DNA of 29,532 bases from a virus (lineage: Duplodnaviria; Caudoviricetes): the IMG/VR virus record IMGVR_UViG_3300046779_001234, positions 1 to 29,532 of that record; one strand, 5' to 3'. Positions within the stretch are counted from its first letter, which is position 1; each line of letters opens with the position of its first letter. The notes beneath the pieces are model-generated. The model was not told the DNA's origin and searched no databases. It saw only the letters and a program-made list of their open reading frames with translations. The position numbers were made by a program, and so were the translations under genes. This document shows positions 7,132 to 29,532 of this stretch, piece by piece.

Positions 7132-7138
7132 ATATATA

Positions 7139-7172
7139 ATTATACCAACAATGCGAATACTTTTGGTATAAT
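7139..7172. promoter_or_regulatory. Back-to-back extended -10 promoters
   Basis: TGGTATAAT on minus (7139-7147) and on plus (7164-7172), 7 and 9 nt before the respective ATGs. Confidence 0.7.
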
Positions 7173-7181
7173 GGTGGTATT

Positions 7182-8078
7182 ATGAAATATTTAGTCACTG
7201 GTGGAGCTGGATTTATCGGCTCAAATATTGTAGATAAGCTTTTGGAAAATGGTCACTCGGTTGTCGTTATTGATAATGAGTCATCTGATGCCCATGATCG
7301 ATTTTACTGGAATGAAAAAGCAGATAACCATATAGCAGACATCTGCGACTATGATACTGTAAGGCCACTATTTGATGGCGTAGACTATGTTCTTCACTTA
7401 GCAGCAGAGGCAAGGATTCAGCCAGCGATTATCAATCCACTAAAAGCTGTAAAGACTAACACTCTTGGAACAGCTACGGTACTACAGTGTGCCAGGGAAG
7501 CTGGCGTAAAGCGTGTGGTATACTCGTCCACATCTTCTGGTTATGGAAGAAACGGTATTCCAAATATAGAAACTCAACCAGACGATTGCCTAAATCCATA
7601 CTCTGTATCAAAGATTAGCGGAGAAAAATTATGCTCTATGTATTATGAGCTATTTGGGCTAGAGACTGTAGTCCTAAGATATTTTAACGTATATGGCCCA
7701 AGAGAGCCGATGAGAGGTCAGTATGCACCAGTTATTGGAATATTTAGACGACAAAAGCAGGCTGGTGAGCCATTAACGATTGTTGGCGATGGAGATCAAA
7801 GACGTGACTTCACGCATGTATTCGATGTCGCTAATGCAAATATTCTAGCAAGCACTGCCTCAGTCTCGCAGCACCTGTTGGGTACGGTATTTAATATTGG
7901 CACTGGAACAAACTATTCGGTAAATGAGATTGCTAAAATGTATAATCATACATCAATCAATATCTCACCTAGGCTAGGCGAGGCCAGAGAAACATTGGCT
8001 AACAATGAAAAGTCAGTTAATATTCTTGGATGGCAGCCAAAAGAAAGCGTGGCAGACTACATTGCCAACAACAACTAA
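7182..8078 (+). CDS. NAD-dependent nucleotide-sugar epimerase/dehydratase (GalE/WcaG-like)
   Basis: TGGAGFIGS, HLAA, YSVSK (YxxxK), LRYFNVYGP, GDGDQRRDFTHV. Confidence 0.95.
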   Translation: MKYLVTGGAGFIGSNIVDKLLENGHSVVVIDNESSDAHDRFYWNEKADNHIADICDYDTVRPLFDGVDYVLHLAAEARIQPAIINPLKAVKTNTLGTATVLQCAREAGVKRVVYSSTSSGYGRNGIPNIETQPDDCLNPYSVSKISGEKLCSMYYELFGLETVVLRYFNVYGPREPMRGQYAPVIGIFRRQKQAGEPLTIVGDGDQRRDFTHVFDVANANILASTASVSQHLLGTVFNIGTGTNYSVNEIAKMYNHTSINISPRLGEARETLANNEKSVNILGWQPKESVADYIANNN

Positions 8079-9165: not shown

Positions 9166-9959
9166 AAGAAAAGTTAGGGCTTGTCCTCGTAGCAACAAAT
9201 AAATATGTTCCGCTTGGATTAAGAATGGTTAACAGATTGAACCATTTTTGTAACAACAAAGATGATATGAGGATATATTTATATACTGATGTTGATGTGA
9301 CTGAATTTGTATCAAAGCATTCAAACGTCACGGTAGTAAACATTAACAAAAAGCATTCTTGGGGTGCAGCCCTATTCCTAAGAATGAAGGCATTAAAGGA
9401 AGTTGCTTCTTCTAATGATCATGAATTTGTTGCTGGTCTTGACGCAGATTCAAATATCTACAGAAGTTTCGATGTCGATGAGCTGGTTGCAGAAAATTTT
9501 GTTTTTGAGCACAGCTACATCACTAATGGAAGACAATTAGGTGAGTGGTGGCCATTTGAAACAAACCCTAATTCGATAGCCTATGTAGACCCAGCCAGTA
9601 ACCCAAAGAGCTATTATCAGATATGCTATTTCGGTGGTACTCCAAAAAATGTTATTAAAATGACCGATGTCGTTTTCGAGCAGCTAGACATAGACTTAAA
9701 AAATAACGCTGTCCCTACCCACTGGCCAGACGAAAGATACATGCAAAAGTATTTCGTAGAGTTCCCACCAACTAGACTATTTAACATGAATACGTTCCCA
9801 ATAATAATAGATGATAAGGGCATGGATAACTTTGTTTCTGGCGTTGACGAGCTGCCATTTTTTGGCCTTACACAAGAGGAATATGATGATCTTGTGCATA
9901 AAACGATTATGTATGACGGATTGTGGAACATAAAGAATAATAAATTTATAGCTGAATAG
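9162..9959 (+). CDS. GT6-like (ABO/alpha-1,3-Gal/GalNAc type) glycosyltransferase
   Basis: VATNKY, LDAD, FETNPNSIAYV, YYQICYFGG, WPDERYMQKYF. Confidence 0.8.
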   Translation: MKEKLGLVLVATNKYVPLGLRMVNRLNHFCNNKDDMRIYLYTDVDVTEFVSKHSNVTVVNINKKHSWGAALFLRMKALKEVASSNDHEFVAGLDADSNIYRSFDVDELVAENFVFEHSYITNGRQLGEWWPFETNPNSIAYVDPASNPKSYYQICYFGGTPKNVIKMTDVVFEQLDIDLKNNAVPTHWPDERYMQKYFVEFPPTRLFNMNTFPIIIDDKGMDNFVSGVDELPFFGLTQEEYDDLVHKTIMYDGLWNIKNNKFIAE

Positions 9960-9991
9960 GCTTATCAAATTTATTATGCTATAATATCTGT

Positions 9992-10904
9992 ATGCCATAT
10001 CATGTTGGAGAAAAGGGATCATACGGTTGTTCGGGTTACCCTGCCCTAAAAGACGACGGAACCGTAATGGGCTGCCACACTTCTAAGGAAGAGGCTGCCA
10101 ATCAAATTTATGCTATTAATGTTTCTGAGGGCAACGTTGATAAGGCAGACCCATGCTGGGATGGATATACTCAGCGAGGCATGAAGCCAGGAGATAATGG
10201 AAGAATGGTTCCAAACTGTGTTCCTGTTTCCAAGATGGATTGTTGAGGGCGATTTCGTAATGGCTATGACAACAGAAGGTGCTATTGTCGGTCAGGTAGA
10301 GCACGTAATGGTTGAAGGCGGTACCTACGGTCAGCCAGGCAACCCATATGCGGTAGAATCTACACCAGACAACCCAGCGGTAGCTATCAGAATGCTAGAA
10401 GAGGAAGACGGAGTATACTATTACACACCTTACTCAATCGGTGCACTGATGTCTGATGTAAATAGAATTAACATGCCTAACATTAGTATGGAAGACTATG
10501 AAGATGACAAATATATGGACAAAGCTGAAGGCTATTCTCCTCCTGCTGGTGCCAGGGCTGCTGCTCGTCGTGCTATTAAGTTCAAAGAAGACGGAAAAGC
10601 TAACGGAGCAGGAACTGCAGTTGGATGGACTAGAGCTAGACAGCTGGCTAATGGAGAGACACTCTCGCTCAGCACAGTAAAGCGTATGTACTCATACTTC
10701 TCTCGCCATGAGGTAGACAAGAAGGGTAAGGACTGGGGAAACACAGCAAACCCATCTAACGGATACATCATGTGGCTTGCATGGGGTGGAGACGCAGGAT
10801 ACTCCTGGTCTAGAAGAATCGCACAGCGTGAATCGGACAAGGCCATGTTCTCTGATTTCGGTAAAGATTATACAAAAACTACACGAATTACTAACATTAG
10901 ATAA
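9992..10904 (+). CDS. Multi-domain phage protein split by a +1 frameshift near 10237 (possible head-associated protein)
   Basis: ORF 9992-10246 (PCWDGY..GMK...VPNCVP module) continues in +1 frame as IVEGDFV... (Tudor-like) and a GWTRARQLA...RMYSYFSRH...WLAWGG domain; downstream ORF has no own RBS. Confidence 0.6.
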
Positions 10905-10927
10905 TTCTGTTTTGATATAATTATTAA

Positions 10928-11602
10928 ATGCAAGTAGATCTTCGAGCAATTCCAATTTATTTTATTAATCTGCCAGAGCAAAAAACTAGATATAAAACAA
11001 TAGTTAAGATGCTGAGCAAGGCAGGATTTAAAGACATTCGTCCTATCGAAGGCATAAGACACACAACATCTTATCTAGGTGTCTCTCTTAGTCATTTAAA
11101 GGCATTAAGAATAGGCGAGCAGTCTGGCTATCCATTCATAATTCTAGAGGACGACGTTGATGTCAATAAATTTATTTATAATTTTTGGCTTCCCGACGAC
11201 ACAGATATTTTCTATCTAGGCGTGGCAAAGTCTGGAAGATGCTTTGAGTGTGGTGGCCTTTCTATGGCTACTGGTGCTAAATACGAAAAGTATGATGACG
11301 GCCTGTATAGAGCCGTATCACTATTTTGCGATCACGGGAAGATTTATTTTACAAAAGCTGCGGTTGAAGCTCAAAAAAGAATGATAGCTAAGTCGCTGAA
11401 AAACAGGATGCAGCATGATATATATATGTGGAAAGAGTGTCGTGGTCTACTATGCCTTACAACACGATTCCCAATGGTATACCAGAATGATCCAGATCCA
11501 GACAAGAAGCTGTGGAAACGTGACGAGACAATGATTGATATTGAAGAATACATAAATGAAAATAGAATGGAAGTGTGCGATGACTGCTACTCAAAACAAT
11601 AA
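10928..11602 (+). CDS. Glycosyltransferase, GT25-like
   Basis: YFINL, SLSHLKAL, PFIILEDD, PDDTDIFYLG; leaderless. Confidence 0.78.
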   Translation: MQVDLRAIPIYFINLPEQKTRYKTIVKMLSKAGFKDIRPIEGIRHTTSYLGVSLSHLKALRIGEQSGYPFIILEDDVDVNKFIYNFWLPDDTDIFYLGVAKSGRCFECGGLSMATGAKYEKYDDGLYRAVSLFCDHGKIYFTKAAVEAQKRMIAKSLKNRMQHDIYMWKECRGLLCLTTRFPMVYQNDPDPDKKLWKRDETMIDIEEYINENRMEVCDDCYSKQ

Positions 11603-12383
11603 ATCCCTAGCTCATATGTTTTGGGATGGACCAATTACTACGTATCAGAAGGCATCTATTCTATCTGCATATAATGCTGGATTCCACGTCATAGTCTGGT
11701 CATTCACAACTCACCCACTGCCACCAGAAATTGAGCAACGTAATGCCGAAGAGATTTTATCTAGGAACGACATTTCTCACCTAGCTTACCAGGGGTGGCA
11801 CAGAGGACAGAGTGAGCAACATAGGGAGCGAGCACTTTATAGTGACTTCTTTAGAGCAGAGGTTCTAGACCAGCTTGGTGGGTGGTGGTTTGACACAGAC
11901 CTATTGTTTTTTAAGTCTGCACAAGAGTTTGAAAAGCTGTTGTCAAAAAATGTTGTAGCAGGCCAGGAACCTCACACTTATTTTTCTGTAAACAATGCGG
12001 TGCTTTCTTTTGGAAATAAAAAATATGCAACTCTTTACAAAAGATATCTTTACGAGCTTGGCAAAATGGGTGGAGAATACAAGTGGGGTACTTTTGGTCC
12101 AGGTGCACTAAACTCCATCTTTAATAAGTTAGGTATGAAAGATGACGTGATGCCCCAAAACTATTTTTATCCAGTAAACGTCGGAGATCGTAAGCAGCTG
12201 TATGCACACTCTGGAATAGCTAGAAAGTTTTGTTATGATAGGGTTGCAGATTCTTTTTGCCTACATTGGTGGAATAGCTCAGAGTTTAACAAGAAATCTG
12301 GGTTTGGCGATAAGCCACACAATAGTAGCTTCTTAGGTTTAGAGTTTGCCAAGGTATTCAACAAGTTTGATGGGAATAGGTAG
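11580..12383 (+). CDS. DXD glycosyltransferase (GT32/alpha-1,4-GT-like)
   Basis: HMFW, SDFFRAEVL..LGGWWFDTD, NNAVL, WGTFGP, FYP, HWWN; start ATG 11580 or 11556. Confidence 0.82.
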   Translation: MTATQNNKSLAHMFWDGPITTYQKASILSAYNAGFHVIVWSFTTHPLPPEIEQRNAEEILSRNDISHLAYQGWHRGQSEQHRERALYSDFFRAEVLDQLGGWWFDTDLLFFKSAQEFEKLLSKNVVAGQEPHTYFSVNNAVLSFGNKKYATLYKRYLYELGKMGGEYKWGTFGPGALNSIFNKLGMKDDVMPQNYFYPVNVGDRKQLYAHSGIARKFCYDRVADSFCLHWWNSSEFNKKSGFGDKPHNSSFLGLEFAKVFNKFDGNR

Positions 12384-12388
12384 TTACG

Positions 12389-13207
12389 ATGGGCAGAAAA
12401 GCAATAGTAATATTTGCAACAAATAAATATTTTGTTCTTGGACTAAGACTAATATCACACTGGGAGCATCACTATAAGTCAGACAATAAGATAGATTTTA
12501 TTTTTATATCCGACTCTGATCCAAAACAGTATTATGACAAGAAAAATATACACTATATCCCAGTAGGAAATGATCTATCTTTTCTAGACATAATGATTTT
12601 ACGTTGGGCATATGCGTCTAAGATAGCATCGTTCGGCCTCCATGACGAAATATTGATGATAGATGCAGATACGTCAATCAATAAAGACTTTAGCGATGAA
12701 AACTTTTCTAGTAACCTTACAATGGTCAAGCATCCAGACAATGACAACAGAGACTGGATACTTAATCATTCTTTTGAAAATAACAAAAGATCATCAGCCT
12801 ATTTTAGATTTACTAAAAATGAGGTTTATTACAATGCAGGATTACTTGTAGCATCTCCAAAAGTAATGATAGATCTTAATGAGCATATATCTAAGTGGTA
12901 TCGTCAGAATATAGCTATGGGTATAAGCACCCCATGGCATGATGAAACCTATATAAATAAGTATGCACATACCGTAAAGATACCAGAAAAGATTCTCTAC
13001 CAAGATACAGTATTTCTGACTATGAGTGATAAAGGCGGTAGCTCTATGATAACTGGCCACTCGTCAGGCAGCGGAGTCTATGTATTCGATAATGCCAGAG
13101 CGATAGACAATGCATACACTAAGATACTGGAGCAGTTGCATGCTATGGATATCAACAACTGTAAGTGGATAATCTCAGATGAAGGTAAGATCCAAATAGT
13201 TTCTTAA
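12389..13207 (+). CDS. GT6-like glycosyltransferase (second copy)
   Basis: FATNKY, IDAD, FENNKRSSAY, YYNAG, WHDETYINKY; paralogue of 9162-9959. Confidence 0.8.
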   Translation: MGRKAIVIFATNKYFVLGLRLISHWEHHYKSDNKIDFIFISDSDPKQYYDKKNIHYIPVGNDLSFLDIMILRWAYASKIASFGLHDEILMIDADTSINKDFSDENFSSNLTMVKHPDNDNRDWILNHSFENNKRSSAYFRFTKNEVYYNAGLLVASPKVMIDLNEHISKWYRQNIAMGISTPWHDETYINKYAHTVKIPEKILYQDTVFLTMSDKGGSSMITGHSSGSGVYVFDNARAIDNAYTKILEQLHAMDINNCKWIISDEGKIQIVS

Positions 13208-13476
13208 CTATTTTCACGATAATGAGTTCTAATCTTGTGACAATTTGAGCAAACAACTTCACACTTAGCAACTTCTTTCCAAGCCATCTCTTCACCATAG
13301 TTTCTAAGAACACGATATACGACATCAATCTTTTGGAATCCAGGCATGTGATCAAACTCTAGGACGTAGTGTGGGAAATGTTGACGGCAGTCAGCACAGC
13401 CTTTCTTCTCTTTATAGAGATGAAGCTCTTCTAAAACCGCAGCCATAGCCTTGCGGTGCTTGGCAGACTTTACCAT
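13204..13476 (-). CDS. Small HNH endonuclease-like protein
   Basis: CADC...LEFDH...KCEVVCSNCH..RT motif. Confidence 0.8.
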   Translation of the reverse strand: MVKSAKHRKAMAAVLEELHLYKEKKGCADCRQHFPHYVLEFDHMPGFQKIDVVYRVLRNYGEEMAWKEVAKCEVVCSNCHKIRTHYRENS

Positions 13477-13522
13477 ATAATACTATTTTATCATTGTATT
13501 AATAATAACGGTATAATAAACC

Positions 13523-13639
13523 ATGATAGATATTCACTATAAAATGCCATGTGGGCATAGTGTTTCTGGAATTAATTATGAAGAAATTTTTGTCAATATT
13601 TTCTACCACATTTGCCTTGACAAGATATACCTTCAGTGA
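13523..13639 (+). CDS. Small leaderless ORF (38 aa, MIDIHYKMPCGH...)
   Basis: TATAAT 13512-13517, ATG 5 nt later; not in the ORF track. Confidence 0.4.
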   Translation: MIDIHYKMPCGHSVSGINYEEIFVNIFYHICLDKIYLQ

Positions 13640-13651
13640 TATCATATAGGT

Positions 13652-13819
13652 ATGGAAAAAGATATTGACGAAAATAAGGCATTTCAAACATTTGCCTTGG
13701 AAGACTTACAAAAATTTATTGCTACTTCGGGAAAGTCCACCACTGAACAAGAGCTTCTTGCTTGGCAAATGGGCTACATTGCAGGGGTAAACCGTGCGAT
13801 GGGAATTAAGAATGGCTAG
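13652..13819 (+). CDS. Small hypothetical protein (55 aa), paralogue of next gene
   Basis: TTGACA-17-TATCAT-6-ATG; TEQELLAWQMGYIAGVN motif; not in the ORF track. Confidence 0.75.
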   Translation: MEKDIDENKAFQTFALEDLQKFIATSGKSTTEQELLAWQMGYIAGVNRAMGIKNG

Positions 13820-13985
13820 ACAAAACAAAAGAGAGGATGCTAGGATGATTCGTAGCATTCTTAATAAGGCTAAGTCTGCTATGGTTGATTGGATCGTTAA
13901 GCTTGGCTATACTCCAACGGATGAAGAGCTTAGAGCTTGGCAGTCTGGCTATATTGCTGGACTAAATCAAAAAGAGTCTAATTAA
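13812..13985 (+). CDS. Small hypothetical protein
   Basis: TDEELRAWQSGYIAGLN motif; start moved to ATG 13812. Confidence 0.75.
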   Translation: MARQNKREDARMIRSILNKAKSAMVDWIVKLGYTPTDEELRAWQSGYIAGLNQKESN

Positions 13986-14170
13986 TCTTCGTAGGGGATT
14001 TCAACAAGTGGATAAGTCTCTTGGCAAGATAGGCAGTAGTGGGTGTACTCCTTTACTACTGGGCCACCAAGCACAACGACATTAGCACGAGAAAGTGCTA
14101 TATCATCCATGGTTGGATACCCGTACCATATTGGTACCATCTTTGAGCTATTGCATAATGGACAGTTCAT
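13982..14170 (-). CDS. Zinc-ribbon protein
   Basis: CPLC...YGYP...LGG...CLSC; start moved to 14170 (TGGTAAAAT-7 nt-ATG). Confidence 0.75.
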   Translation of the reverse strand: MNCPLCNSSKMVPIWYGYPTMDDIALSRANVVVLGGPVVKEYTHYCLSCQETYPLVEIPYED

Positions 14171-14312: not shown

Positions 14313-14534
14313 ATGACTACAGTTTATACAAAGCCTGCATGTGTGCAGTGCGACATGACCAAGCGGTACATGGATAAGAACGGTATTGAATACAATACTA
14401 TTGATATTACTAAAGATCCAGAAGCTTTGGACATGATTCTTGGCATGGGATTCTCCTCTGCACCAGTTGTTATCTCTGAGAAGGGTAGCTGGGCAGGTTT
14501 TCAGCCAGAGAAAATTGACCTCCTGGCTGCTTGA
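14313..14534 (+). CDS. nrdH: NrdH-like glutaredoxin
   Basis: VYTKPACVQC, APVV, WAGFQPEKI; AGAAGGAG RBS; upstream TTGACA...TATAAT. Confidence 0.93.
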   Translation: MTTVYTKPACVQCDMTKRYMDKNGIEYNTIDITKDPEALDMILGMGFSSAPVVISEKGSWAGFQPEKIDLLAA

Positions 14535-14575
14535 CTTTTAATTCCTAATAACCTATAATTATTGAGAGAGAAGAG

Positions 14576-14818
14576 GTGGGTATGAATTTTATCATACAAG
14601 AAGTTGAAGACCATGTAGACGAGCATGCTCATGGTAATTTTAGCCTAGAATCGTTGGCCGAAGTAGTATTCGGGACGGAGCACATTATTGCAGAGTTCTT
14701 TTGGAACGCTGTTTTTATTCTTGGAACATACCTTTTTACTAAGGCTGTTGCACTAAGAAAGATTCATAAATACGTAGACGACAAGCATGGGGTTACCCAT
14801 AAAGATGGAGGGTACTAA
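14576..14818 (+). CDS. Hypothetical membrane protein, His-rich
   Basis: One hydrophobic segment; coupled to groES (TAATG). Confidence 0.65.
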   Translation: MGMNFIIQEVEDHVDEHAHGNFSLESLAEVVFGTEHIIAEFFWNAVFILGTYLFTKAVALRKIHKYVDDKHGVTHKDGGY

Positions 14819-15093: not shown

Positions 15094-15811
15094 GGAAATG
15101 ATGATTATTAAAGATTTTCCAGATCCTGTAAAGGTATTGGATGAGGGATATGTACGTTTGGTTGATACTCTTGGGGATGACCTATCTGTTGTTAATGCTG
15201 CACGTGTATCGTACGATAAGGAGTCTCGATCGTTTGAGGCCAGGGATGAGAAGCTTATTAGCTTCCTCATTCGTGAAGGGCATACGTCGCCATTCCGCCA
15301 CGCTGCACTTACCTTCGAAGTCTACGCACCGCTATTTGTTGCAAGACAGTGGTGGAAGTATGCAGTCGCATCAACCCATGTAGATGAGCAAAATGGCTGG
15401 AACGAGTCTTCTCGTCGCTATATCACTGAGCATGAACAGTTTTATGTTCCATTGCCAGACGCATGGCGTAGCAAGCCAGAAAACAGTAAGCAGGGTTCTG
15501 GCGAGCCAATTGATCCAGAGGTAGGACACATGCACTTTGAGCGTCTCCTCAAGACCATCGAGGCTGGTACACGGATGTATCATGACGCTATGAATGATGG
15601 TGTTGCTCCAGAACTAGCACGTCTATTCCTACCTGCCTATGGCATGTATGTTCGTTGGCGTTGGACTGTATCGCTGCAGGGAGTTCTAACATTCCTTGAC
15701 CAGCGACTAGAGCATGACGCACAGTGGGAGATTCAGGAGTATGCTAAGGCTGTTCGCAATCTGTCTGAGCAGGCATTCCCAGAAACAATGAGAGTGCTTG
15801 GTTCGCTATAA
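15086..15811 (+). CDS. thyX: Flavin-dependent thymidylate synthase ThyX
   Basis: VVNAARVSY, GHTSPF, PLFVARQW, NESSRRY, ELARLFLP, R...AQWEIQEYA; start may be ATG 15098/15101. Confidence 0.93.
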   Translation: MVKEMMIIKDFPDPVKVLDEGYVRLVDTLGDDLSVVNAARVSYDKESRSFEARDEKLISFLIREGHTSPFRHAALTFEVYAPLFVARQWWKYAVASTHVDEQNGWNESSRRYITEHEQFYVPLPDAWRSKPENSKQGSGEPIDPEVGHMHFERLLKTIEAGTRMYHDAMNDGVAPELARLFLPAYGMYVRWRWTVSLQGVLTFLDQRLEHDAQWEIQEYAKAVRNLSEQAFPETMRVLGSL

Positions 15812-21698: not shown

Positions 21699-21959
21699 TT
21701 ACTCGTCTATAGCCAGCAAATCGTCTAGGCTCTCGTAGCCTGTATCCTCTACGCCTAAGCCAGCAAGTAGCAAGTCAAAGGTTTCACTAATAAACTGCTC
21801 TGCCATAGGCGACAACTCTACAATGTTGGCTGATACAATGTAGGCAAGTGGCAAGCCAATGTCGTTATACTGGATAAAATCTTGGAACTCGTCATCTTGG
21901 CGATAGTTTAGCCATAGGTCTGATAGAATGTTTGCCTTGTCAGTAATTGATGTCGCCAT
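21699..21959 (-). CDS. Hypothetical phage protein
   Basis: F..YNDIGLPLAY motif; AAGGAAG RBS. Confidence 0.75.
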   Translation of the reverse strand: MATSITDKANILSDLWLNYRQDDEFQDFIQYNDIGLPLAYIVSANIVELSPMAEQFISETFDLLLAGLGVEDTGYESLDDLLAIDE

Positions 21960-22131
21960 TTGTTTCTTCCTTTTCGTATTTTGAGGCTTCCGCCACTTCT
22001 TGAACTCGCCTGTATGTTGTATTGCTGTGTCTTGCTAAGTAAATCCCTACTTGCTCTAAATCTATTGTTAGGTCATTTACTAGTTTTGCTATTTTCTCTG
22101 ATACTTTCTCAGCCTCGCTTTTTCCTCTCAT
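21940..22131 (-). CDS. Hypothetical phage protein
   Basis: GAGGT RBS before ATG 22131; upstream TTGACA-17-TAAAAT promoter (22149-22177). Confidence 0.7.
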   Translation of the reverse strand: MRGKSEAEKVSEKIAKLVNDLTIDLEQVGIYLARHSNTTYRRVQEVAEASKYEKEETNGDINY

Positions 22132-22165
22132 ACTACACCTCACTTGCTATTTTACCAAAGTTTGT

Positions 22166-22273
22166 TGGGGGTGTCAAGAGTGAAAGTAGTAAATTCTCTC
22201 AACACCCCCATGGTAACACCCAGCTACCCCTAACTAGGTTGTTACCGTCCTACGGAGTAGTCTCAACGTAGGA
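22166..22273 (-). ncRNA. Three tandem hairpins in a 3' UTR; loops ACUA, GGGG (UAGGGGUA) and CUACUUUC
   Basis: Stems TCCTACG/CGTAGGA, GGTAACA-CCTAGTTA/TAGCTGGG-TGTTACC, TGGGGGTGT/ACACCCCCA; G-U pairs favour the minus strand. Confidence 0.6.
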
Positions 22274-22284
22274 AGTCTATTTAG

Positions 22285-22626
22285 TTAATCTTTGTACTTG
22301 GGGAATGATTCTAGATACATCTTGATACTATCTGGCATTACGTCCCAGTAGTCCTTGAGGTACCCCTCCATACCGTACCAGCAATCGCCATCTTCAAAGT
22401 ATGCGTCGTTGTTGAGTCCTAGTGCACGAATCTCGTCAACAGTTAGCCTGCGTGGCACTGCAACCTCTTCGTGACCTGCACCTTCGAATGCATAAACATG
22501 TATGCTCCATGATGTAGGGTCGTAGTACCAATGATTAGTACGTGGGTCCTGCTCCTCCTGCATGAAGATATTCAGGTCATAGTCAATCTTAGTCTTATTA
22601 GCATTCTTGCTTCTAGTTAGTACCAC
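22285..22626 (-). CDS. Hypothetical protein
   Basis: ORF in the minus-strand operon. Confidence 0.7.
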   Translation of the reverse strand: MVLTRSKNANKTKIDYDLNIFMQEEQDPRTNHWYYDPTSWSIHVYAFEGAGHEEVAVPRRLTVDEIRALGLNNDAYFEDGDCWYGMEGYLKDYWDVMPDSIKMYLESFPKYKD

Positions 22627-22904
22627 GGTCCCTCTTCCGTTATGTCGTGGTCTTCACAGCCACAGCAGTTCAAACAGTACTGTTGCATCTGGTCACACCT
22701 GTATACGTCCATTATAACTTCTTTGTCTTCTTTAGTCAAGTAGACCTGGCAGTCGCTACAAATTTCGATCGATTCCTCGTCTAGCAACTGGAATACCTCA
22801 CCTGCCTCTACATGGTTATAGAACTTTTCGATTAGTTCTTTCTCCCACTCAGGGTCAATGAGCAATGTAAACTTCTTAACTAACAATTGGTGCGTCCTCT
22901 CCAT
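22617..22904 (-). CDS. Cys-rich hypothetical protein
   Basis: CSDC, CDQ, CLNCCGC; true start possibly TTG 22886. Confidence 0.65.
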   Translation of the reverse strand: MERTHQLLVKKFTLLIDPEWEKELIEKFYNHVEAGEVFQLLDEESIEICSDCQVYLTKEDKEVIMDVYRCDQMQQYCLNCCGCEDHDITEEGPWY

Positions 22905-23313
22905 AGATGTCCTTTAGTGCCTCTACAGTGTCACAGTCGATGTCAATCATACCCTCGTCGCAATCTGGGCAGTCAGGGTTAGGGTCACCATCCCAAGTTA
23001 GAACACCATCAGTCTCTTCATCTACGCAGTCACACTGGCGGTATACCCAACTAGGAACTTCAGTATACTCATCTTCCCAAGGATTCTCAGTAATGTAGTA
23101 GTGAATACGGTTTACGAAATGATAGCCAGCAACAATGTAAGTGCCGCTGTCTCCGTCTACCTCTGTCCAGATATACTTGTTGTCAGCCTTCTGAACAAAC
23201 TCTACTTCCTCGCCATAGGTTTCGAAGTGAAGGTCTTGTCCATGCTTAGTTAGATGATTTTTGATTGGCTTGAAGGTGTCTACCCAAGATGAGTAGGTAT
23301 AGAATTTAGACAT
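22876..23313 (-). CDS. Hypothetical phage protein with C-terminal Zn finger
   Basis: FETYGEE..FV, IWT, GYHFVNRIHYYITENPW, CDC...CPDC. Confidence 0.75.
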   Translation of the reverse strand: MSKFYTYSSWVDTFKPIKNHLTKHGQDLHFETYGEEVEFVQKADNKYIWTEVDGDSGTYIVAGYHFVNRIHYYITENPWEDEYTEVPSWVYRQCDCVDEETDGVLTWDGDPNPDCPDCDEGMIDIDCDTVEALKDIYGEDAPIVS

Positions 23314-23325
23314 TGGGGTCCTATC

Positions 23326-23853
23326 TTAGAAGTGGAAGTCTACAGGAACAATATACCAGTTTTTGATACCCTTGTCAATAGCCTCAAACATATAGGCAGG
23401 GGTAGTTGTGTCGTTATGGCTATCAAAGAAGTATGAGTTATAGTCCCATTCACCATATGCCATATCAATAATCTTCTTTAGTGGATACATCTCTGAGAAT
23501 GAGGCGAACATCTTTTCACGAGGATTGTAGTCAGAGATAATCTTAGTAATGATATCTGCATTTACATCCTTAGCATAGTCATCAAACTCACGCTTACGGC
23601 TTTCCATAGATTGCAGCACACGCTCTTCAAATAGGTCAGGGTCAGTCTCATAGGATAGAACCATAGACTGGTCGTCATCGTTATACTGGTTATCAGGGTT
23701 AGGATTCCACCTACCCCCACCAGTTACAAACCAGTCATACCATGAGGCATAACTGTATTCGCTTCCCATAGCAGTCTCAAGATAATCTTTGACTGAACGG
23801 AATGCCATGTCTTTGTCGTCAGCTGTAGTGGCTATCCACTGTAATACATGCAT
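23326..23853 (-). CDS. Hypothetical phage protein
   Basis: WYDWFVTGGGRW and terminal VPVDFH motif. Confidence 0.78.
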   Translation of the reverse strand: MHVLQWIATTADDKDMAFRSVKDYLETAMGSEYSYASWYDWFVTGGGRWNPNPDNQYNDDDQSMVLSYETDPDLFEERVLQSMESRKREFDDYAKDVNADIITKIISDYNPREKMFASFSEMYPLKKIIDMAYGEWDYNSYFFDSHNDTTTPAYMFEAIDKGIKNWYIVPVDFHF

Positions 23854-23884
23854 GGGGTTATACTTTCTCTAGGGTAATACTATT

Positions 23885-24436
23885 TTACAGTAAAACGTTA
23901 GCGTTGTCAACTGCCTCTTGCAAGATTTCCTCTGCCCTGGCGGTAGCAAACGCCTGTAGATAATCTTCCTGCGTAGGCAACTTATCTAGCGGAAACTCTA
24001 CAGTCACACCATACTTAGTAATAAACTTATTAGTGTTGTAGTTGATTTCATAGACACCCTCACAGAATAGGTCGTCTCCCTCAAAGCCACTCTCGTCTAC
24101 AAGTGGAATAGGTCCAGCAGACCAACGCACTACATTGAGAATGTCTCCACAGGTATCTCTACTAAGACTAGGAAGCATAGAACTAAACTTCTTCATGTGA
24201 GTAGTTTCTGGATAGCGAGCATTGTATTCATCATAGATAGCGTCACGCAGTTCGTCTGCTGCGAAGTAGCACTTATCTAATGCTAACTCCAGTTCCTCTA
24301 CAGCATAACGGTCAGCGGTAAGGATAGATAGAATCTTTACACCCTGTCCCTCTGGATAGTGGTCCCATTGTCCGTATTGTGCTACCTTTAGAATGTTGTC
24401 TTTGTCAATTACTTTAGTAAGTCCACGAGTTCCCAT
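23885..24436 (-). CDS. Hypothetical phage protein
   Basis: MGTR...QYGQWDHYPEGQG motif. Confidence 0.78.
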   Translation of the reverse strand: MGTRGLTKVIDKDNILKVAQYGQWDHYPEGQGVKILSILTADRYAVEELELALDKCYFAADELRDAIYDEYNARYPETTHMKKFSSMLPSLSRDTCGDILNVVRWSAGPIPLVDESGFEGDDLFCEGVYEINYNTNKFITKYGVTVEFPLDKLPTQEDYLQAFATARAEEILQEAVDNANVLL

Positions 24437-24459
24437 GGTTATCTACTTTCTTTTGGGGG

Positions 24460-24690
24460 TTAGTTAAATATATTATACGCTGAAAAGTCTGAATTGTCAA
24501 CAGCAAATCGCTGGGCATTCATCCAAGCTGACTCACCAAAGAAATACTTAGGCTTGCCAGAAACGGGGGAAACTTTATAATAGTCGTAATACTTATCAGA
24601 CTCATATACGTTCACACCACCGTTGTGGAAGATCCTTGTCCATGTAGTGGATGATACTGATGGCTTCTTGCTTGCTAATACTTTACTCAT
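24460..24690 (-). CDS. Hypothetical protein
   Basis: GGAG RBS; KYFFGESAW..A.R motif. Confidence 0.7.
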   Translation of the reverse strand: MSKVLASKKPSVSSTTWTRIFHNGGVNVYESDKYYDYYKVSPVSGKPKYFFGESAWMNAQRFAVDNSDFSAYNIFN

Positions 24691-24859
24691 CTTCTCCCTC
24701 TACCCACATCTCACCAGTGTAGTTGTATGAATTAACATCGTATGCAAATTCCCAAATTTCTTCATCGTCTGCAATTTCTAGGGCTTCTTCTCTTGACTTT
24801 GCTTCTATGGTAATTTGTTCCCAGTTTGTATATTCTCTTTGCACTTTATAATATGGCAT
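24683..24859 (-). CDS. Small acidic protein (58 aa) with IEAxSxEEA motif
   Basis: AAAGGAG RBS; paralogous to 26048-26236; not in the ORF track. Confidence 0.7.
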   Translation of the reverse strand: MPYYKVQREYTNWEQITIEAKSREEALEIADDEEIWEFAYDVNSYNYTGEMWVEGEDE

Positions 24860-24982
24860 ATGTCTCCTTTGGGGTTATAACCAATTATCCCAAAATTGGG
24901 GGATTTTGTCAAGTGTTCGTAATTACTTTTTTATAAGTAACTATATATATTATGTTAACCTGGATCGGCCCATCCTGGGAAG

Positions 24983-25156
24983 CTACTCTTTCATATCAAT
25001 GCTAAGGCTGGCAAGCAAAACCTGTAGTGTCATTCTTGCAGGTATCACGTCAAGGGCAGGATTATCGATAGCATTCTTGATAGTCTTTACAACATAGTCG
25101 TGCATATCCTTCATGCCCTGCTCATACCCAATTTGTTCCATCTCTGATACAGCCAT
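24983..25156 (-). CDS. Hypothetical protein (57 aa, MAVSEMEQIGYEQG...)
   Basis: GGAG RBS, TAATG coupling; not in the ORF track. Confidence 0.6.
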   Translation of the reverse strand: MAVSEMEQIGYEQGMKDMHDYVVKTIKNAIDNPALDVIPARMTLQVLLASLSIDMKE

Positions 25157-25353
25157 TAGCAACTCCCATCGTTTGGTATCTGGTCTTCTGGAACACCCAT
25201 CATTCTTAGGACAGACTGGCTTCTATTGATAAGCCCCTCTAGATAGTCACCAAAACTATCATTGATGTCTAGCCCATCTTTCTCACCAATAAACAAAGCG
25301 GTGTCCTCAATAAGGAACTTGATAATTTCCTCGTTAGTCATTGTCTTCGTCAT
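25156..25353 (-). CDS. Hypothetical protein
   Basis: GGAG RBS, coupled ORF. Confidence 0.65.
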   Translation of the reverse strand: MTKTMTNEEIIKFLIEDTALFIGEKDGLDINDSFGDYLEGLINRSQSVLRMMGVPEDQIPNDGSC

Positions 25354-25531
25354 TGTATGCTGCTCCGTTCATTAGGATGTATGCGTATTCGAGAGCGTCT
25401 AGCCAACCCTCAGCATGCTTGCGTTCCATCGTTTCATCAAAGTCATAGCCAGACCTTTCCTCTACGCCGATGGCTTCAGCAAGTGACACTCGTGCCTGCT
25501 TGATTTCTTGTTCTAGGGCTTTTAGGTTCAT
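25334..25531 (-). CDS. Hypothetical protein
   Basis: AAAGG RBS; AEGWLDALE motif. Confidence 0.65.
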   Translation of the reverse strand: MNLKALEQEIKQARVSLAEAIGVEERSGYDFDETMERKHAEGWLDALEYAYILMNGAAYNDEDND

Positions 25532-25629
25532 TACTTTACCTTTGCTAACATCTCTGATAGTTTTATTAGTTGTTCTGGGGTAAGGCTGTTCAAAACATCC
25601 TCGTTGATTAGATTATTACTTGTCCACAT
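25531..25629 (-). CDS. Small leaderless protein (32 aa, MWTSNNLINE...)
   Basis: ATGTC-type promoter with TACAAT 7 nt before ATG 25629. Confidence 0.6.
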   Translation of the reverse strand: MWTSNNLINEDVLNSLTPEQLIKLSEMLAKVK

Positions 25630-25666
25630 AGAAACCATTGTAGCGTTAGGGTCAGACATTTTACTC

Positions 25667-26017
25667 CTATTCAAAGAATTGTGGGACAACGATAACAAAC
25701 TTGTCAGTTCCGTCATCATTGGTAAATACAGCGTCAACTAGTCTAAGACTACAAGAGTCTTCATACCAAGTAAAGACTAAGTCTTCCATGGCACTAGGCG
25801 TATCACTAATAGTCTTATCATAGCCATAGCCAATCATCTTCTCAGTTTGCTTGGAATCCATGTTCAAATAGATTTTGTGGCAACCGTCGTATGAGACTGA
25901 GTCTGCTTGTGATAGTAGTTCTGATAGGTTTGTTTCCTGGTTTCCCTCACACAAACGGCAGAAAGGGTTACAGTCAAAAGCACCTTCATGGTTAGGGCAT
26001 TCAATGGGGGTATTCAT
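25667..26017 (-). CDS. Hypothetical protein with Cys/His cluster
   Basis: ECPNHEGAFDCNPFCRLCEG and DGCHKIY...WYEDSCSLR modules; start moved to 26017 (leaderless). Confidence 0.7.
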   Translation of the reverse strand: MNTPIECPNHEGAFDCNPFCRLCEGNQETNLSELLSQADSVSYDGCHKIYLNMDSKQTEKMIGYGYDKTISDTPSAMEDLVFTWYEDSCSLRLVDAVFTNDDGTDKFVIVVPQFFE

Positions 26018-26047
26018 GGTATCTACGATAGCACTAGGGTATGACAT

Positions 26048-26236
26048 TTATTCCTCATCCTCGTCTTCGTCGTCTTCCAGTTCCTCAATGTCCATGTCGT
26101 AAACACCGTCATAGGTGATGTCATTGTCCATAGTGTCACCCCAAGAGGTGTAAGCAAGTTCTTCTGCTGCTTCTTTTGATTCTGCCTCAATTTCTCCAGC
26201 AAAATCAATTCTCATCTTTACATAAAATCTAGCCAT
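26048..26236 (-). CDS. Small acidic protein with IEAESKEAA motif
   Basis: Conserved leader GAAAGTAG; poly-D/E tail. Confidence 0.7.
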   Translation of the reverse strand: MARFYVKMRIDFAGEIEAESKEAAEELAYTSWGDTMDNDITYDGVYDMDIEELEDDEDEDEE

Positions 26237-26285
26237 TGTTCTACTTTCTTTAGGGTAAGTCTATTATAGGGTGGGGGTCAGACAT

Positions 26286-26495
26286 TTATGGGGTATAGTG
26301 TTCAACAAGAATAGACTCATCTACCATCTTGCCATACTCACGAATAACATCTTCGTCAGTCCAGTCAATTGAGCCATCTTCATTACGCCACTCTGCTGCG
26401 ACATCTTCAGGTAGGTCATCAGTATCTAGAACATAAAGAACACGGTTAGGCTCATGAGTCCACCAGTCACCGTTTTCGTTAGCAATAAAAATCAT
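26286..26495 (-). CDS. Hypothetical acidic protein
   Basis: GAAAGGA RBS; promoter at 26523-26552. Confidence 0.7.
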   Translation of the reverse strand: MIFIANENGDWWTHEPNRVLYVLDTDDLPEDVAAEWRNEDGSIDWTDEDVIREYGKMVDESILVEHYTP

Positions 26496-26671
26496 TGGGG
26501 TATTCCTTTCGTTGATGTATCAATTATCTCAGATAGCACTGACATTGTCAAGAACCTGGGAAAATATTTTGGTGTTCGTAATTAAGTTTTCGTAATTAAA
26601 TATACAACTATAGATTACTGGTCCGATCACGCCCAACCCCCAGCTGTCAAGCCAGGGGTCAGCGTGTCGCC

Positions 26672-27685
26672 TTATGCCATTACGGCAGACTGAACAATTT
26701 TCATCAGGCGGTTTTTCTCAGCGTTCACCATTGGGTCAAAGCCTGAAGCACTAGCAAGGATAGACTCGTTGCTACCGCCACGACCTGAACGATACCAGTC
26801 TAGGCGTTCTGTTAGAGCGTTGAAAGCACCCCAAGCAGTTCCGCTAATGGTGTTGTTGTAGTCACCAACATAGATAGACTGAAGCAGGTCAATCTTAGCG
26901 TCATACTTTTTGAATGAACCCTTAGCGTCTTTTTCTGGGGCAGGGTATGCCAACTCAACAATCTTGTCAAACTGAGCCTTAGTGATTTCAGTTTCAATCA
27001 TAGCGTTAGCAATAGCAGAGAACTCGTCAATGTAAGTCTTAGCCAATCCAAGAGCCTCTCGTGCTACCGCAATTTTACCCTCGGCAGTCTGGGTGTGGCG
27101 AATCTTGAAAGTTTGCTTTACAGCCTTTTTGCCCTTGAATGAAGATAGAGCAAGGTTTAGAGTGTTAGCACATACAACACGAACAGGTGTAATCGAAGCC
27201 TGAATAGCGATAGAGCCATCGTGGCTAGTGTTGATTAGCAAATAGTTGTCAATCTTATCTGCCACGCCTTTAGGGTCAAGGGTAATTGAATCACGAAGGG
27301 CAATTGAACCAAAGACAACACGACCGCCACGAATAGAGCCAGCAGTTTCCCAACGACCACCACCGTCTAGCAGGTTGTCACCGAATGAGAACAAATCCTC
27401 GTTCTGAAGTGGAACATAGCGTTCACCAACAACGCCAAGAACATCATTGGTGTTGCGGTCAAATGGGTTAGTGCGAGTCACGAAAGAGTAGGACTTGTCT
27501 GAATCAAAGCCTTCTGGAATTGCTACATCTTCTAGGCGAACATTCCAGTTGTCTAGGTGTGCGAGTTTCAACATCTCGTTAGTGTTTACCTCGTTATCGA
27601 ACACAGTGCCAAGACCATGCCAAGCAGGTTGGCGAAGTGAAGCAAAAGCGGTTTCGCCGTTTACGGTTTCTAGTTCGTGAGCCAT
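26672..27685 (-). CDS. DUF932 family phage/plasmid protein
   Basis: MAHELE...PAWHGLG, LGVVGERYVPLQN, ETAGSIRGG, SHDGS, TPVRVVCANT, RHT, GTAWGAFNA; AGAAAGG RBS favours ATG 27685. Confidence 0.92.
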   Translation of the reverse strand: MAHELETVNGETAFASLRQPAWHGLGTVFDNEVNTNEMLKLAHLDNWNVRLEDVAIPEGFDSDKSYSFVTRTNPFDRNTNDVLGVVGERYVPLQNEDLFSFGDNLLDGGGRWETAGSIRGGRVVFGSIALRDSITLDPKGVADKIDNYLLINTSHDGSIAIQASITPVRVVCANTLNLALSSFKGKKAVKQTFKIRHTQTAEGKIAVAREALGLAKTYIDEFSAIANAMIETEITKAQFDKIVELAYPAPEKDAKGSFKKYDAKIDLLQSIYVGDYNNTISGTAWGAFNALTERLDWYRSGRGGSNESILASASGFDPMVNAEKNRLMKIVQSAVMA

Positions 27686-27877
27686 AGTGGTCACCTTTCT
27701 TAGTGGGGATTTCTGATAAGACTATTATGACAGAGGGGTCAGACATTGTCAAGACTATTTAGGAAAAATTCTGGGGATTTCGTAACAACTTCGTAAACTT
27801 GACAAATGATCCTGGGCGTGAGCGGCCCCCTGATCACCACAAATGTCAAGCTTGGTTTTCGACAGATGTGGTGTGGG

Positions 27878-27904
27878 TGAGCAGTTTAGACACTTGCTCA
27901 GGTG
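27878..27904 (-). ncRNA. 3'-UTR pseudoknot motif, copy 2
   Basis: CAC-CTGAGCAA-GTG-TCTAAAC-TGCTCA, 6 nt after stop. Confidence 0.7.
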
Positions 27905-27910
27905 CTTGGA

Positions 27911-28360
27911 TTAGATAAGGTCAATAACTGACGAGTAAGAACTTGCCGAGATTTCCTCTTGGCTAGTCATACGCAATACCTTTAGGTTCTGCTCTAGGAC
28001 TTCCTTGCGGTTGATGTGCTTGTTGCCATACCACTCACTCTGGTTTGGCTTCTTTGGCTCAGTTGGCTTTACAGGGAAACCAACAATCTTGTCAGAGTCA
28101 AAGGTGAGTTCCAGACGACCATTGTAGTTAGTGCCAATACGAATGTCTGCGGTGTGGTCATAACCAATCTTGTCAGCGTTCTTGCTAACAAAATCAGTAA
28201 TAGCCTTAGCAACCTGAGTCTTGTAGTTTGCTAGGTCTGCCTCATACTTCTCGTAGTCAGCAGGGTAAGACGCAACATCAGCGTCAATCTTCTGGATTGC
28301 TTCCTCAATCTGAGCAATAACAGCAGCGGTTGGAACTTTTACGGACAGGGCACGAGCCAT
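27911..28360 (-). CDS. Hypothetical protein
   Basis: Own promoter, conserved leader, biased codon usage. Confidence 0.8.
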   Translation of the reverse strand: MARALSVKVPTAAVIAQIEEAIQKIDADVASYPADYEKYEADLANYKTQVAKAITDFVSKNADKIGYDHTADIRIGTNYNGRLELTFDSDKIVGFPVKPTEPKKPNQSEWYGNKHINRKEVLEQNLKVLRMTSQEEISASSYSSVIDLI

Positions 28361-28419
28361 TTTGTATCTACTTTCTTTTAGGGTATTTTTATTATAGGGG
28401 TAGGGTGTGACATTTATTG

Positions 28420-28449
28420 TGAGCAGTTTACCTTGACATACTCAGGTCA
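28420..28449 (-). ncRNA. 3'-UTR pseudoknot motif, copy 3
   Basis: TGAC-CTGAGTAT-GTCA-AGGTAAAC-TGCTCA, 6 nt after stop. Confidence 0.7.
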
Positions 28450-28455
28450 TTTTTC

Positions 28456-28695
28456 CTAGAACAGCCCTAGGAACTTCTTGCGTGGTGCTTCAACAGTAAT
28501 AGTCTTTTCAACAATCTTCTCAATAACCTTTGCTTCTGGCTTTGAGATGAACTTGGTCTGGTTGGTAGCACCATCAAAAGTGCCATTTGGGTTACGAACA
28601 ACAGCCTTGAAACCCTCGCCAGATTTAGTTACCCAAATCTCGGTGCGAACAGTTAGTTGCTGGTTCTTCTTCTGAGCAATAATCTTGCCTGACAT
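28456..28695 (-). CDS. Hypothetical basic protein
   Basis: Own promoter and leader; C-terminal RKKFLGLF amphipathic tail. Confidence 0.75.
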   Translation of the reverse strand: MSGKIIAQKKNQQLTVRTEIWVTKSGEGFKAVVRNPNGTFDGATNQTKFISKPEAKVIEKIVEKTITVEAPRKKFLGLF

Positions 28696-28750
28696 TAGTC
28701 TTCTTTCTTTAGGGTAATTACAGTATAAAGTATGGGTCTGACATTTATAG

Positions 28751-28791
28751 TTGGGGGGATAGAGAAAGGATAAGAAACGCTATCCCCCCAA
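28751..28791 (-). ncRNA. 3'-UTR hairpin with anti-Shine-Dalgarno-like loop
   Basis: 12-bp stem TTGGGGGGATAG/CTATCCCCCCAA; minus-strand loop CGTTTCTTATCCTTTCT. Confidence 0.55.
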
Positions 28792-28801
28792 GTCTATTTA
28801 T

Positions 28802-28948
28802 TTACTTTACAGTAGTCCAGCGGTCAGTTCCGTTTACATCTAGACGAACTCGGAATGAGCCTGTCTTGTTCTGGATTACTTCCTGAATTACACCAGACAC
28901 GCCAGACTTAGCGGTGGTGAACTGTGAGCCAACAGTTAGAGTGTTCAT
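28802..28948 (-). CDS. Small beta-rich protein (48 aa, MNTLTVGSQFTTAKSGVSG...)
   Basis: GAAGGAAG RBS; not in the ORF track. Confidence 0.7.
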   Translation of the reverse strand: MNTLTVGSQFTTAKSGVSGVIQEVIQNKTGSFRVRLDVNGTDRWTTVK

Positions 28949-29155
28949 TTTGCTTCCTTCACCTAGTCCATTACTAGGATTTTTCTCGTTTTTTATTCTC
29001 AGGTTTTCCTGATGTATCTATTATGGGGCATAAACGAATAATTGTCAAGCCCAAATGCTACTTTTTAGATAATTTTTTCTACAAACTTTTTGGGGATTTT
29101 TTGTAGACTTCGTAACTTGACAAATGGTGTGGGTAGGGGATCGGTACCACAAAAG

Positions 29156-29240
29156 TGGGACAGTTTTACGTCGTGTCCAGGACGGTAGGGACCTAAGAAA
29201 GGATTAAGACGGCCACCTACATATGCATACCCCTATGCAT
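29156..29240 (-). ncRNA. 3'-UTR module: UAGGGGUA hairpin, anti-SD hairpin and pseudoknot copy 4
   Basis: ATGCATA-GGGG-TATGCAT; GTAGG-T-GGCC-GTCTTAATCCTTTCTTA-GGTC-CCTAC; CGTC-CTGGACAC-GACG-TAAAAC-TGTCC. Confidence 0.65.
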
Positions 29241-29244
29241 AGAT

Positions 29245-29532
29245 TTATTTTTTACTTGCACTGAATAGAATGTCATTACGGGCAAACACACATTGCGAAC
29301 ATGCAACACATGCAGAACCCTTTTCGCTAATCAGCTGTAGTTTACGATTATTTTCAGGGCATGGAATGGCAGACTTGTCTTGAATAGTCTTGAAGTCCGC
29401 TTTACCTGTAGCAAAGTCCTTGGCCAGATAGGCAAGCTTTACGTCATACTTTTCTTTTAGTTCGAAACCTAGGTCCTTGTTTGCCTCATCGGTTGAGAAG
29501 TAGAGACTAAGGTTATCAATACCAGTTAACAT
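29245..29532 (-). CDS. GP88-like (mycobacteriophage gene product 88 type) protein, C-terminal part; truncated by the window edge
   Basis: NLSLYFSTD...CPE...ACVACSQC...ILF motif pattern. Confidence 0.6.
   Translation of the reverse strand: MLTGIDNLSLYFSTDEANKDLGFELKEKYDVKLAYLAKDFATGKADFKTIQDKSAIPCPENNRKLQLISEKGSACVACSQCVFARNDILFSASKK

Follow-up and report, generated by a model that had tools for sequence, protein, structure and literature searches.

The minus-strand element at 22273-22166 of a 29,532-nt viral sequence (IMG/VR record IMGVR_UViG_3300046779_001234; this whole stretch is called the window below) is, judged by comparative alignment, a conserved structure with compensated stems on the early-gene strand. 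Predicted to fold as RNA, it would derive from a 3′ untranslated region (3′ UTR) and probably acts in trans as a two-loop antisense repressor of the phage's own early genes. The element lies in the minus arm of the window (21699-29532), an array of small genes with many promoter matches. This arm, and with it the timing of its expression, is presumed to be early because of an analogy with the terminal repeat of Streptomyces BE phages.

A first-pass annotation of the window had proposed that 3′-UTR hairpin loops pair with a two-part leader of the early genes. Loop variants track leader variants among relatives, stems change with compensation and loops are kept; these findings support pairing of the loops with the phage's own leaders. 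The part of the proposal that fared less well concerns the loop complementary to the Shine-Dalgarno sequence (anti-SD loop), which is not a constant feature of the family.

The window spans an entire virus record of 29.5 kb with 27% completeness (CheckV) and encodes WhiB, ThyX, three tRNAs, a DUF932 protein and a GP88-family protein. It appears to derive from an uncultured actinophage with a genome of ~110 kb. DUF932 and ThyX are held in common with Streptomyces BE phages, which provide their closest matches (55% and 67%). The same-study sequencing runs listed are freshwater, and the host group of this lake virus is likely the actinobacteria. In the cultured phage records searched, there is no match to the three-hairpin RNA or to genes 28360 and 21959; positions 1-14000 of Samisti12 have other promoters and no match to the RNA model. 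None of the RNA runs listed contains the sequence. Three same-study runs contain only short pieces of relatives, none over 22036-22303, and are uninformative on expression.

Structure of the three-hairpin RNA

The predicted fold consists of three hairpins in a row, with no stem connecting the 5′ and 3′ ends, and has a folding z-score of -6.4 (22155-22290). Two hairpins had been described at 22166-22246; both are present but belong to the larger RNA at 22273-22166, whose upstream hairpin (22273-22248) had been overlooked. This first hairpin, HP0 (22248..22273, minus strand), is predicted to comprise a stem, a 2-nt bulge, GAG/CUC and a 4-nt loop. In an alignment of 40 elements, made by sequence only, five of its seven outer pairs have compensatory changes.

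HP1 (22212..22246, minus strand) carries a GGGG loop (22230-22227), complementary to ACCCC; its apex is weak (A-U, U-A, U.G), its lower stem strong. The G-loop hairpin is thus present as originally described, but the predicted loop is shorter than the one quoted: it is GGGG only, and the flanking UA/UA are paired. U.G or U.U occupies the third pair position below the G loop in 39 of the 40 aligned elements. From this sequence pattern the apex looks selected for weakness, and it would presumably open.

HP2 (22166..22210, minus strand) has a G/C-rich stem and a 15-nt open loop (22195-22181) with CUACUUUC, the complement of GAAAGUAG. It is likely also a terminator; a terminator scan in which only loops of 3-8 were allowed did not return it. 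The promoter match TTGACA-17-TAAAAT of gene 22131 (22149..22177, minus strand) has its -35 box inside the 3′ arm of HP2, and this arm is conserved in the alignment. Two conserved small genes lie just downstream of the RNA (21699..22131, minus strand). ACCCC is missing from all orthologous leaders of both genes (0 of 51 and 0 of 84); because of this, and of their own promoter match within HP2, they are predicted to escape the RNA.

Conservation across relatives

The first set of relatives comprised 157 loci found via two early genes (the best 80 of 127 and the best 80 of 405 matches), or 119 groups once near-identical loci were merged. A second set of 155 further loci was found via gene 21959 (the best 80 of 391 and of 418 matches; five viral matches were already in the first set). 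The held-out set contained 86 loci, 47 of them with at least three scorable leaders. Leaders across relatives were called with a simple gene caller written for this analysis. The 40 aligned elements were picked for AGGGGT at the right distance, with 11 deviant ones omitted; the closing A-U pair found in 40/40 results from this selection and is not used as evidence. The RNA model R1 caught only HP0, with four spurious pairs, and behaves mostly as a sequence profile.

Among 77 non-redundant regions that precede the gene 22131 homologue, 60 contain AGGGGT. Within HP0 and HP1, 84.9% of alignment cells are paired, compared with 66.6% after shuffling and 39-54% after sliding. All 40 elements fold better on the early-gene strand, where G.U pairs are also more frequent (208/1689 versus 66/1446 on the opposite strand). 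Counts made with no selection for position have the same strand bias: of the AGGGGU sites, 43 of 367 on the early strand and 6 of 642 on the opposite one fall in a hairpin loop. Tandems of a G-loop and an anti-SD-loop hairpin number 66 on the early-gene strand and 0 on the opposite one. Early-strand anti-SD motifs fall in hairpin loops at 113 of 218 intergenic sites versus 16 of 94 coding sites, and they follow six or more different genes. When all of IMG/VR was scanned with the pattern, 92 matches emerged: 28 fold into both hairpins, 25 of these beside at least two homologues of window genes; the 64 unstructured matches all lie outside the phage family. Five complete genomes have one or two copies of the three-hairpin RNA each and none elsewhere. 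Conserved structure on the sense strand 3′ of a stop codon, a trait of the class of trans-acting 3′-UTR-derived small RNAs (sRNAs), is likewise found. Loss of loops with retention of stems had been named in advance as the pattern that would speak against an antisense role; the opposite was seen, in that stems change with compensation and loops are kept.

Three other interpretations of the structure were discarded. A DNA hairpin instead of an RNA is disfavoured by the strand bias and the G.U pairs. The loop as merely the SD of an opposite-strand gene is contradicted by the scarcity of a following ATG at 2-10 nt (3 of 64 elements). Matched stem lengths, as a two-armed geometry would have, are not supported (rho 0.14, p 0.27).

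Arrangements vary among relatives. At L015 (16719-16857) the three-hairpin RNA is relocated and stands alone with its own promoter match, TTGACA-17-TACAAT, and L017 has two copies with different loops (14485-14608 and 15343-15472). HP1 is duplicated at L004 (16316-16390) and L093 (4440-4514), giving two GGGG hairpins ahead of the anti-SD hairpin. At L098 (12639-15020) the RNA and the homologues of genes 21959-24678 form a block inverted relative to DUF932.

Early-gene leaders and promoters

Enrichment counts indicate that early leaders hold more than an SD. Across relatives, 120 of 1858 early leaders have ACCCC in the stretch from SD to AUG (shuffle mean 6.5, maximum 13), compared with 0 of 610 leaders on the opposite strand; the box is in the 5′ part of the leader in 108 of 1858 (shuffle mean 12-16) versus 4 of 610. 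Within the window, ACCCY-N1-7-GAAAG occurs five times, always on the minus strand, versus 0.57 expected, and 0 of 100 shuffles reach five; TAGGGGTA alone is weak (3 matches versus 0.78 expected; 4 of 100 shuffles). The first-pass annotation quoted three hairpins and seven leader strings, all of which are in place on the minus strand. Its statement that most minus-arm genes carry the two-part leader was too broad: 20 called genes have a readable leader, and within 30 nt ACCC is found in 8 and GAAAG in 7.

All the leaders described here are on the minus strand. ACCCU stands at the predicted +1 of three of them, followed by GAAAGAAG for gene 28695 (28696..28715) and accompanied by GAAAGUAG for genes 28360 (28361..28384) and 26236 (26237..26256). 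The leader of gene 24436 (24437..24460) combines ACCCCC with GAAAGUAG, that of gene 24859 (24860..24875) has ACCCC and then AAGGAG, and that of the DUF932 gene (27686..27708) has CCCC followed at a distance by GAAAGG. Position relative to the start codon varies: ACCCC lies between SD and AUG for gene 26495 (26496..26510; SD GAAAGGA) and immediately ahead of AUG for gene 23313 (23314..23325). Gene 23853 (23854..23875) has ACCCU, GAAAGUA and a further ACCCC ahead of AUG, and this leader is the best candidate for a core target.

Five promoter-like sites TGTC-N12-TAnnnT on the minus strand (28743, 28412, 26284, 26046 and 25658; span 25637..28743) have PafBC promoter geometry, and such sites put ACCC at about +1 in three window leaders. 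Across relatives, the distance from TGTC to the end of the -10 box is 22 nt in 168 of 169 motif matches. ACCC starts exactly 7 nt past the -10 box in 18 of 169 PafBC-type promoters, which is its commonest position. The ACCC in the promoter spacer was rejected as a conserved target, being found in 0 of 70 promoters of a clade that keeps loop and leader box. The PafBC consensus is given as tGTCgg-N10-tA-N3-T in the accessible text of PMC8635444; the upstream TGTC motif shares the 22-nt geometry and differs at the gg positions, so that membership of this promoter class is suggested by sequence. A more extended form of the motif, ATGTCWKACCY-N6-TAnnnT, occurs on the minus strand at 28743, 28412, 27745, 26284, 26046 and 25658, with spacing like that of promoters of the host DNA-damage activator PafBC.

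Association of loop and leader variants

The first-pass annotation had suggested a test for covariation between loop and leader variants. Such variants do co-occur within the same genome; tests corrected for the tree agree in direction without reaching significance. At least two GAAAGUAG leaders are present in 15 of 24 genomes with a CUAC (CUACUUUC) loop versus 2 of 51 others, and in the held-out set the association of CUACUUUC loops with GAAAGUAG leaders recurs (20/104 versus 6/261, p 4e-4 uncorrected for kinship). L311, a CUAC locus, was classed as 'none' in this held-out count. In a swap test with 83 hairpins, own leaders beat the median relative for 19 of 20 CUAC and 52 of 63 CCUU loops, and private loop-leader matches occur at different hairpin sites (L079, L021/L029 and L056). 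GAAAGUAG-ATG sites in complete CUAC genomes concentrate in one early block: 5/5 in G001, 5/6 in G002 and all within a 10-kb block in G003.

Single orthologues behave similarly, in comparisons chosen after the earlier leader counts had been seen. Orthologues of gene 23853 have AAAGUA in 23 of 31 CUAC genomes versus 4 of 63 others; AAAGUAG is found in orthologues of gene 24436 in 14 of 26 versus 0 of 35, and in those of gene 28360 in 16 of 30 versus 6 of 53. In the L077 and L094 lineages the gene 23853 leader keeps AAAGUA upstream of a separate SD, an arrangement that speaks for its retention as a site rather than as the SD. The 16S tail in Actinobacteria, which we take to be GAUCACCUCCUUUCU, ends in UCCUUUCU. 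CUACUUUC deviates from this tail at the exact base where GAAAGUAG deviates from a perfect SD. The tail GAUCACCUCCUUUCU is recorded for Listeria, Streptococcus and others in the accessible text of PMC6288834.

The G loop is likewise associated with the C box. ACCCC is present in 204 of 1093 leaders at loci with a GGGG hairpin versus 52 of 838 without. With four-G loops ACCCC reaches 18% and ACCCA 3%; with three-G loops the figures are 5.5-6% and 16%. Between L006 and L034, which are 98% identical in DUF932, the loop differs (GGGG versus UUGGGU) and five orthologous leaders differ in the matching direction. L015, with the stand-alone RNA, has ACCCC in 7 of 18 leaders, and this persistence, read from sequence, favours action in trans.

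In a deeper clade (L125-L157), both loops upstream of the gene 22131 homologue are G/U-rich (GUGGG, GUGGUGG, UUGGGU). Leaders there are richer in CCACC (3.3% versus 0.6%) and ACCAA (11.3% versus 3.4%), a single contrast.

Shorter hairpins in the early arm

Two shorter structures occur upstream in the minus arm. A two-hairpin element directly 3′ of the GP88-family gene (29185..29241, minus strand) has a GGGG loop (29233-29230) and a UCCUUUCU loop (29210-29194); its folding z-score is only -1.8 (29180-29250). Its loops are identical in L003, where the stems have changed, and similar short tandems occur in L055, L062 and L379. A single hairpin after gene 28948 (28747..28797, minus strand) has the loop UUUCUUAUCCUUU(CU) and a z-score of -4.6 (28740-28810). 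It has an equivalent position in at least 16 other loci, two of them with a CUACUUUC variant. The complement given for the 29185 loop, AGAAAGGA, is as an exact 8-mer in no minus-arm leader of the window; GAAAGGA (26495) and AGAAAGG (27685) come closest. UCCUUUCU is identical to the 16S tail and has no specificity for early genes; this loop version is, on its sequence, a generic 16S mimic.

A recurrent 3′-UTR hairpin, CCUG(A/G)G.A...AAACUG, is found at ~28446 and ~27902 (minus) and ~2927 (plus), with a similar one at ~29182 (minus). In relatives it often lies right behind anti-SD hairpins; it has no Rfam match and is possibly a processing or stability element.

Proposed mechanism and alternative explanations

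In the proposed mechanism, transcription of the last early units from promoters at 23910 or 22739 would yield the RNA as their 3′ UTR; it would survive decay behind HP0 and accumulate while early transcription runs. The GGGG loop, once its weak apex has opened, would pair with ACCC(C/U), either at the 5′ end of a leader or between SD and AUG, and so make the RNA specific for early messages. The HP2 loop would lie over the ribosome site and block initiation on ACCC-tagged leaders. Together the two loops would damp early translation after a delay, as a self-timer, and the hairpins at 29241-29185 and 28797-28747 would be shorter versions that cover GAAAGGA-type sites.

Several observations weigh against this mechanism. 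No such element is found within the 400 nt examined at 39 of the 86 held-out loci, some of which have variant loops or the RNA further upstream. In many relatives the second loop is not anti-SD: HP2 loops are short or SD-unrelated, 30 of 77 groups are classed as 'other', and the stand-alone copy in L015 is among them. The UCCUUUCU loops of the window pair equally well with plus-strand leaders as with early ones, and any specificity must therefore come from the G loop or the CUAC variant; the 29185 loop ranks only 0.25 in the swap test. AAAGUA is missing at gene 23853 in 8 of 31 CUAC genomes. Three complete genomes with CUAC-type loops (G004, G005 and G009) have no GAAAGUAG within 2-10 nt of ATG; in the G004/G005 clade one leader retains a GAAAGUAG-type site further upstream. 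Many loci without a G hairpin still have ACCC leaders (18.7%), and the seeds are short, 5-8 bp each. Several of the L006/L034 genes are themselves divergent, and whole modules may have moved. Neighbouring-module linkage can yield part of the association and is a live confounder because the early arm is mosaic. Tree-corrected sign tests are not significant (2.7 versus 0.2 of 6 pairs; 3.0 versus 0.1 of 7; G loop 3.0 versus 1.2 of 10), and neither is a test picked after seeing the data (6.4 versus 1.0 of 10, median p 0.125); all of these tests are underpowered. L058 escaped the fold filter used for the 7-pair and G-loop tests.

Action purely in cis, in which each 3′-UTR hairpin folds back on the leader of its own message, as in icaR, with no action on other transcripts, is unlikely. 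It would fit the location of all three window elements after a stop codon with no promoter match directly upstream, the placement of the 23853 leader within the same predicted unit as the three-hairpin RNA, and the L003 GP88 leader, which complements both loops of its own 3′ UTR (the L030 and L036 leaders complement the anti-SD loop). However, the matching leaders of genes 28360 and 26236 are in other units and covary with the loop too, the L015 copy stands alone, and L038 and L051 keep the loop although their own leader does not match. We give equally little credence to the combined proposition that there is no antisense role at all, with HP2 as a terminator overlapping a promoter, HP0 and HP1 binding a protein or blocking nucleases, ACCC as a start-site or protein-binding motif, GAAAG(G/U)AG as the family SD, and covariation as shared descent of neighbouring modules. 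ACCC at the predicted +1 of several leaders and in the promoter spacer, the dispensability of the HP2 loop in many genomes and the non-significant tree-corrected tests all agree with it. What it leaves unexplained is that the position at which CUACUUUC departs from the 16S tail is also the one at which the phage SD does, that ACCCC between SD and AUG is not in a promoter position, that the spacer ACCC is absent from the clade keeping loop and leader box, and that private loop-leader matches arise at different hairpin sites.

The targets could also lie elsewhere, with anti-SD loops silencing messages of the host or early genes that belong to a related, competing phage, or with the G loop acting as a sponge for a C-rich host RNA such as 6C. 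The match of UCCUUUCU to the end of the 16S tail, the presence of one or no own match in some CUAC genomes and the C-rich loops of 6C, as described in the accessible text of PMC6486639, are in line with this; the loops, however, track the phage's own leaders genome by genome, and we judge such targets slightly more improbable still. Least credible is a stabilising or activating effect, in which a covered 5′-terminal ACCC would shield early messages from 5′ exonuclease. The commonest position of ACCC, 7 nt past the -10 box, would suit such shielding, but the second loop is directed at the SD, and roughly half of the ACCCC boxes sit between SD and AUG, so that pairing there would be an obstacle to the ribosome. 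Repression in trans by a two-loop antisense RNA thus remains the reading that we prefer.

Comparison with known RNAs and significance

Early-gene shut-off in lytic phages is usually ascribed to proteins acting on RNA polymerase. A many-target antisense RNA against the phage's own early leaders would, if true, be a different solution. The closest precedent in logic is C4 of P1/P7 (RF01695), described in the accessible text of PMC5320573 as three stem-loops cut from a longer transcript, with one loop providing upstream specificity and the other covering the ribosome site. Three stem-loops and two leader-complementary loops (for an upstream box and the ribosome-binding site) are also present here, as judged by complementarity alone. 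The likeness to C4 drawn in the first-pass annotation thus holds for the logic but not for the family: an Rfam search at E<=1 returned only tRNAs and sub-threshold unrelated matches, with no match to the C4 covariance model. The present RNA also differs from C4 in having no enclosing stem in its predicted fold, such as the tRNA-like closing stem at which C4 is processed by RNase P, and in its many predicted targets with separate promoters, in the lack of lysogeny genes seen in the fragment, and in being actinobacterial rather than proteobacterial.

The sRNA 6C of Actinobacteria (RF01066) is reported to pair with many mRNAs through G-C loops without a chaperone (Hfq-less; accessible text of PMC6486639). 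Short G-C loop runs against many mRNAs are likewise proposed here, but the polarity is opposite (G loop against C boxes), the RNA is phage-encoded, its loops are G-rich and U/C-rich, and RF01066 has no match. Overall, the RNA probably works like C4 and 6C while belonging to neither family. s-SodF of Streptomyces coelicolor, a ~90-nt 3′-UTR RNA, pairs with its target from the 5′ end to the ribosome-binding site and represses it, according to the part of PMC3919588 available; it has a single target and a 19-nt perfect match, whereas loop seeds of 5-13 nt and many predicted targets are found here. In icaR of Staphylococcus aureus, a 3′-UTR anti-SD motif blocks initiation on its own mRNA (PMC3868564, available part). 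A 3′-UTR anti-SD motif is present here too, but matching leaders belong to other units and one copy stands alone.

Start-associated sequences (SAS) of cluster K mycobacteriophages are conserved leader boxes beyond 16S pairing, located before non-structural genes, with the partner unknown in the accessible text of PMC3203893. They consist of the 13-bp GGGATAGGAGCCC ahead of start codons and end in CCC just before AUG (PMC3203893). The leaders described here differ from this consensus, GGGATAGGAGCCC, and come with a complementary, covarying RNA. The present system gives a partner hypothesis for start-associated leader boxes, a partner left open by Pope et al. 2011.

No Rfam model and none of the cultured phage records searched contains the three-hairpin RNA family, and the part of the Weinberg 2010 motif list that was accessible (PMC2864571) contains no such motif. 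In searches of open-access listings, no paper described this RNA, or an RNA by which a phage represses many early leaders of its own. This analysis adds the complete extent of the three-hairpin RNA, the covariation between G loop and C box, and tests on held-out loci and at single orthologues.

More tentatively, these RNAs could form an RNA-only shut-off circuit, in which 3′-UTR RNAs read a two-box address in early leaders and address and reader co-evolve as lock and key. Possible pairs within such a circuit are four-G with ACCCC, three-G with ACCCA and CUAC with GAAAGUAG. If real, it could time the end of early translation with no repressor protein, could discriminate between co-infecting relatives and would suggest a purpose for unexplained actinophage start-associated sequences. 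Natural compensatory variants already exist, and the idea is testable without culturing the phage.

Other features of the window

TTACGA(A/T) repeats occur on the minus strand at 29115, 27796, 27785, 26595, 26581 and 24922, in intergenic spacers of the early arm, and at 21605-21370 in a non-coding block below 21700. One match to what we take to be the DnaA-box pattern lies at 25628-25620, just downstream of the 25658 promoter-like site. On the plus strand, a gene cluster at 3645-13207 is glycosyltransferase-, nucleotide-sugar epimerase- and UDP-glucose dehydrogenase-like, and several of its genes are apparently leaderless.

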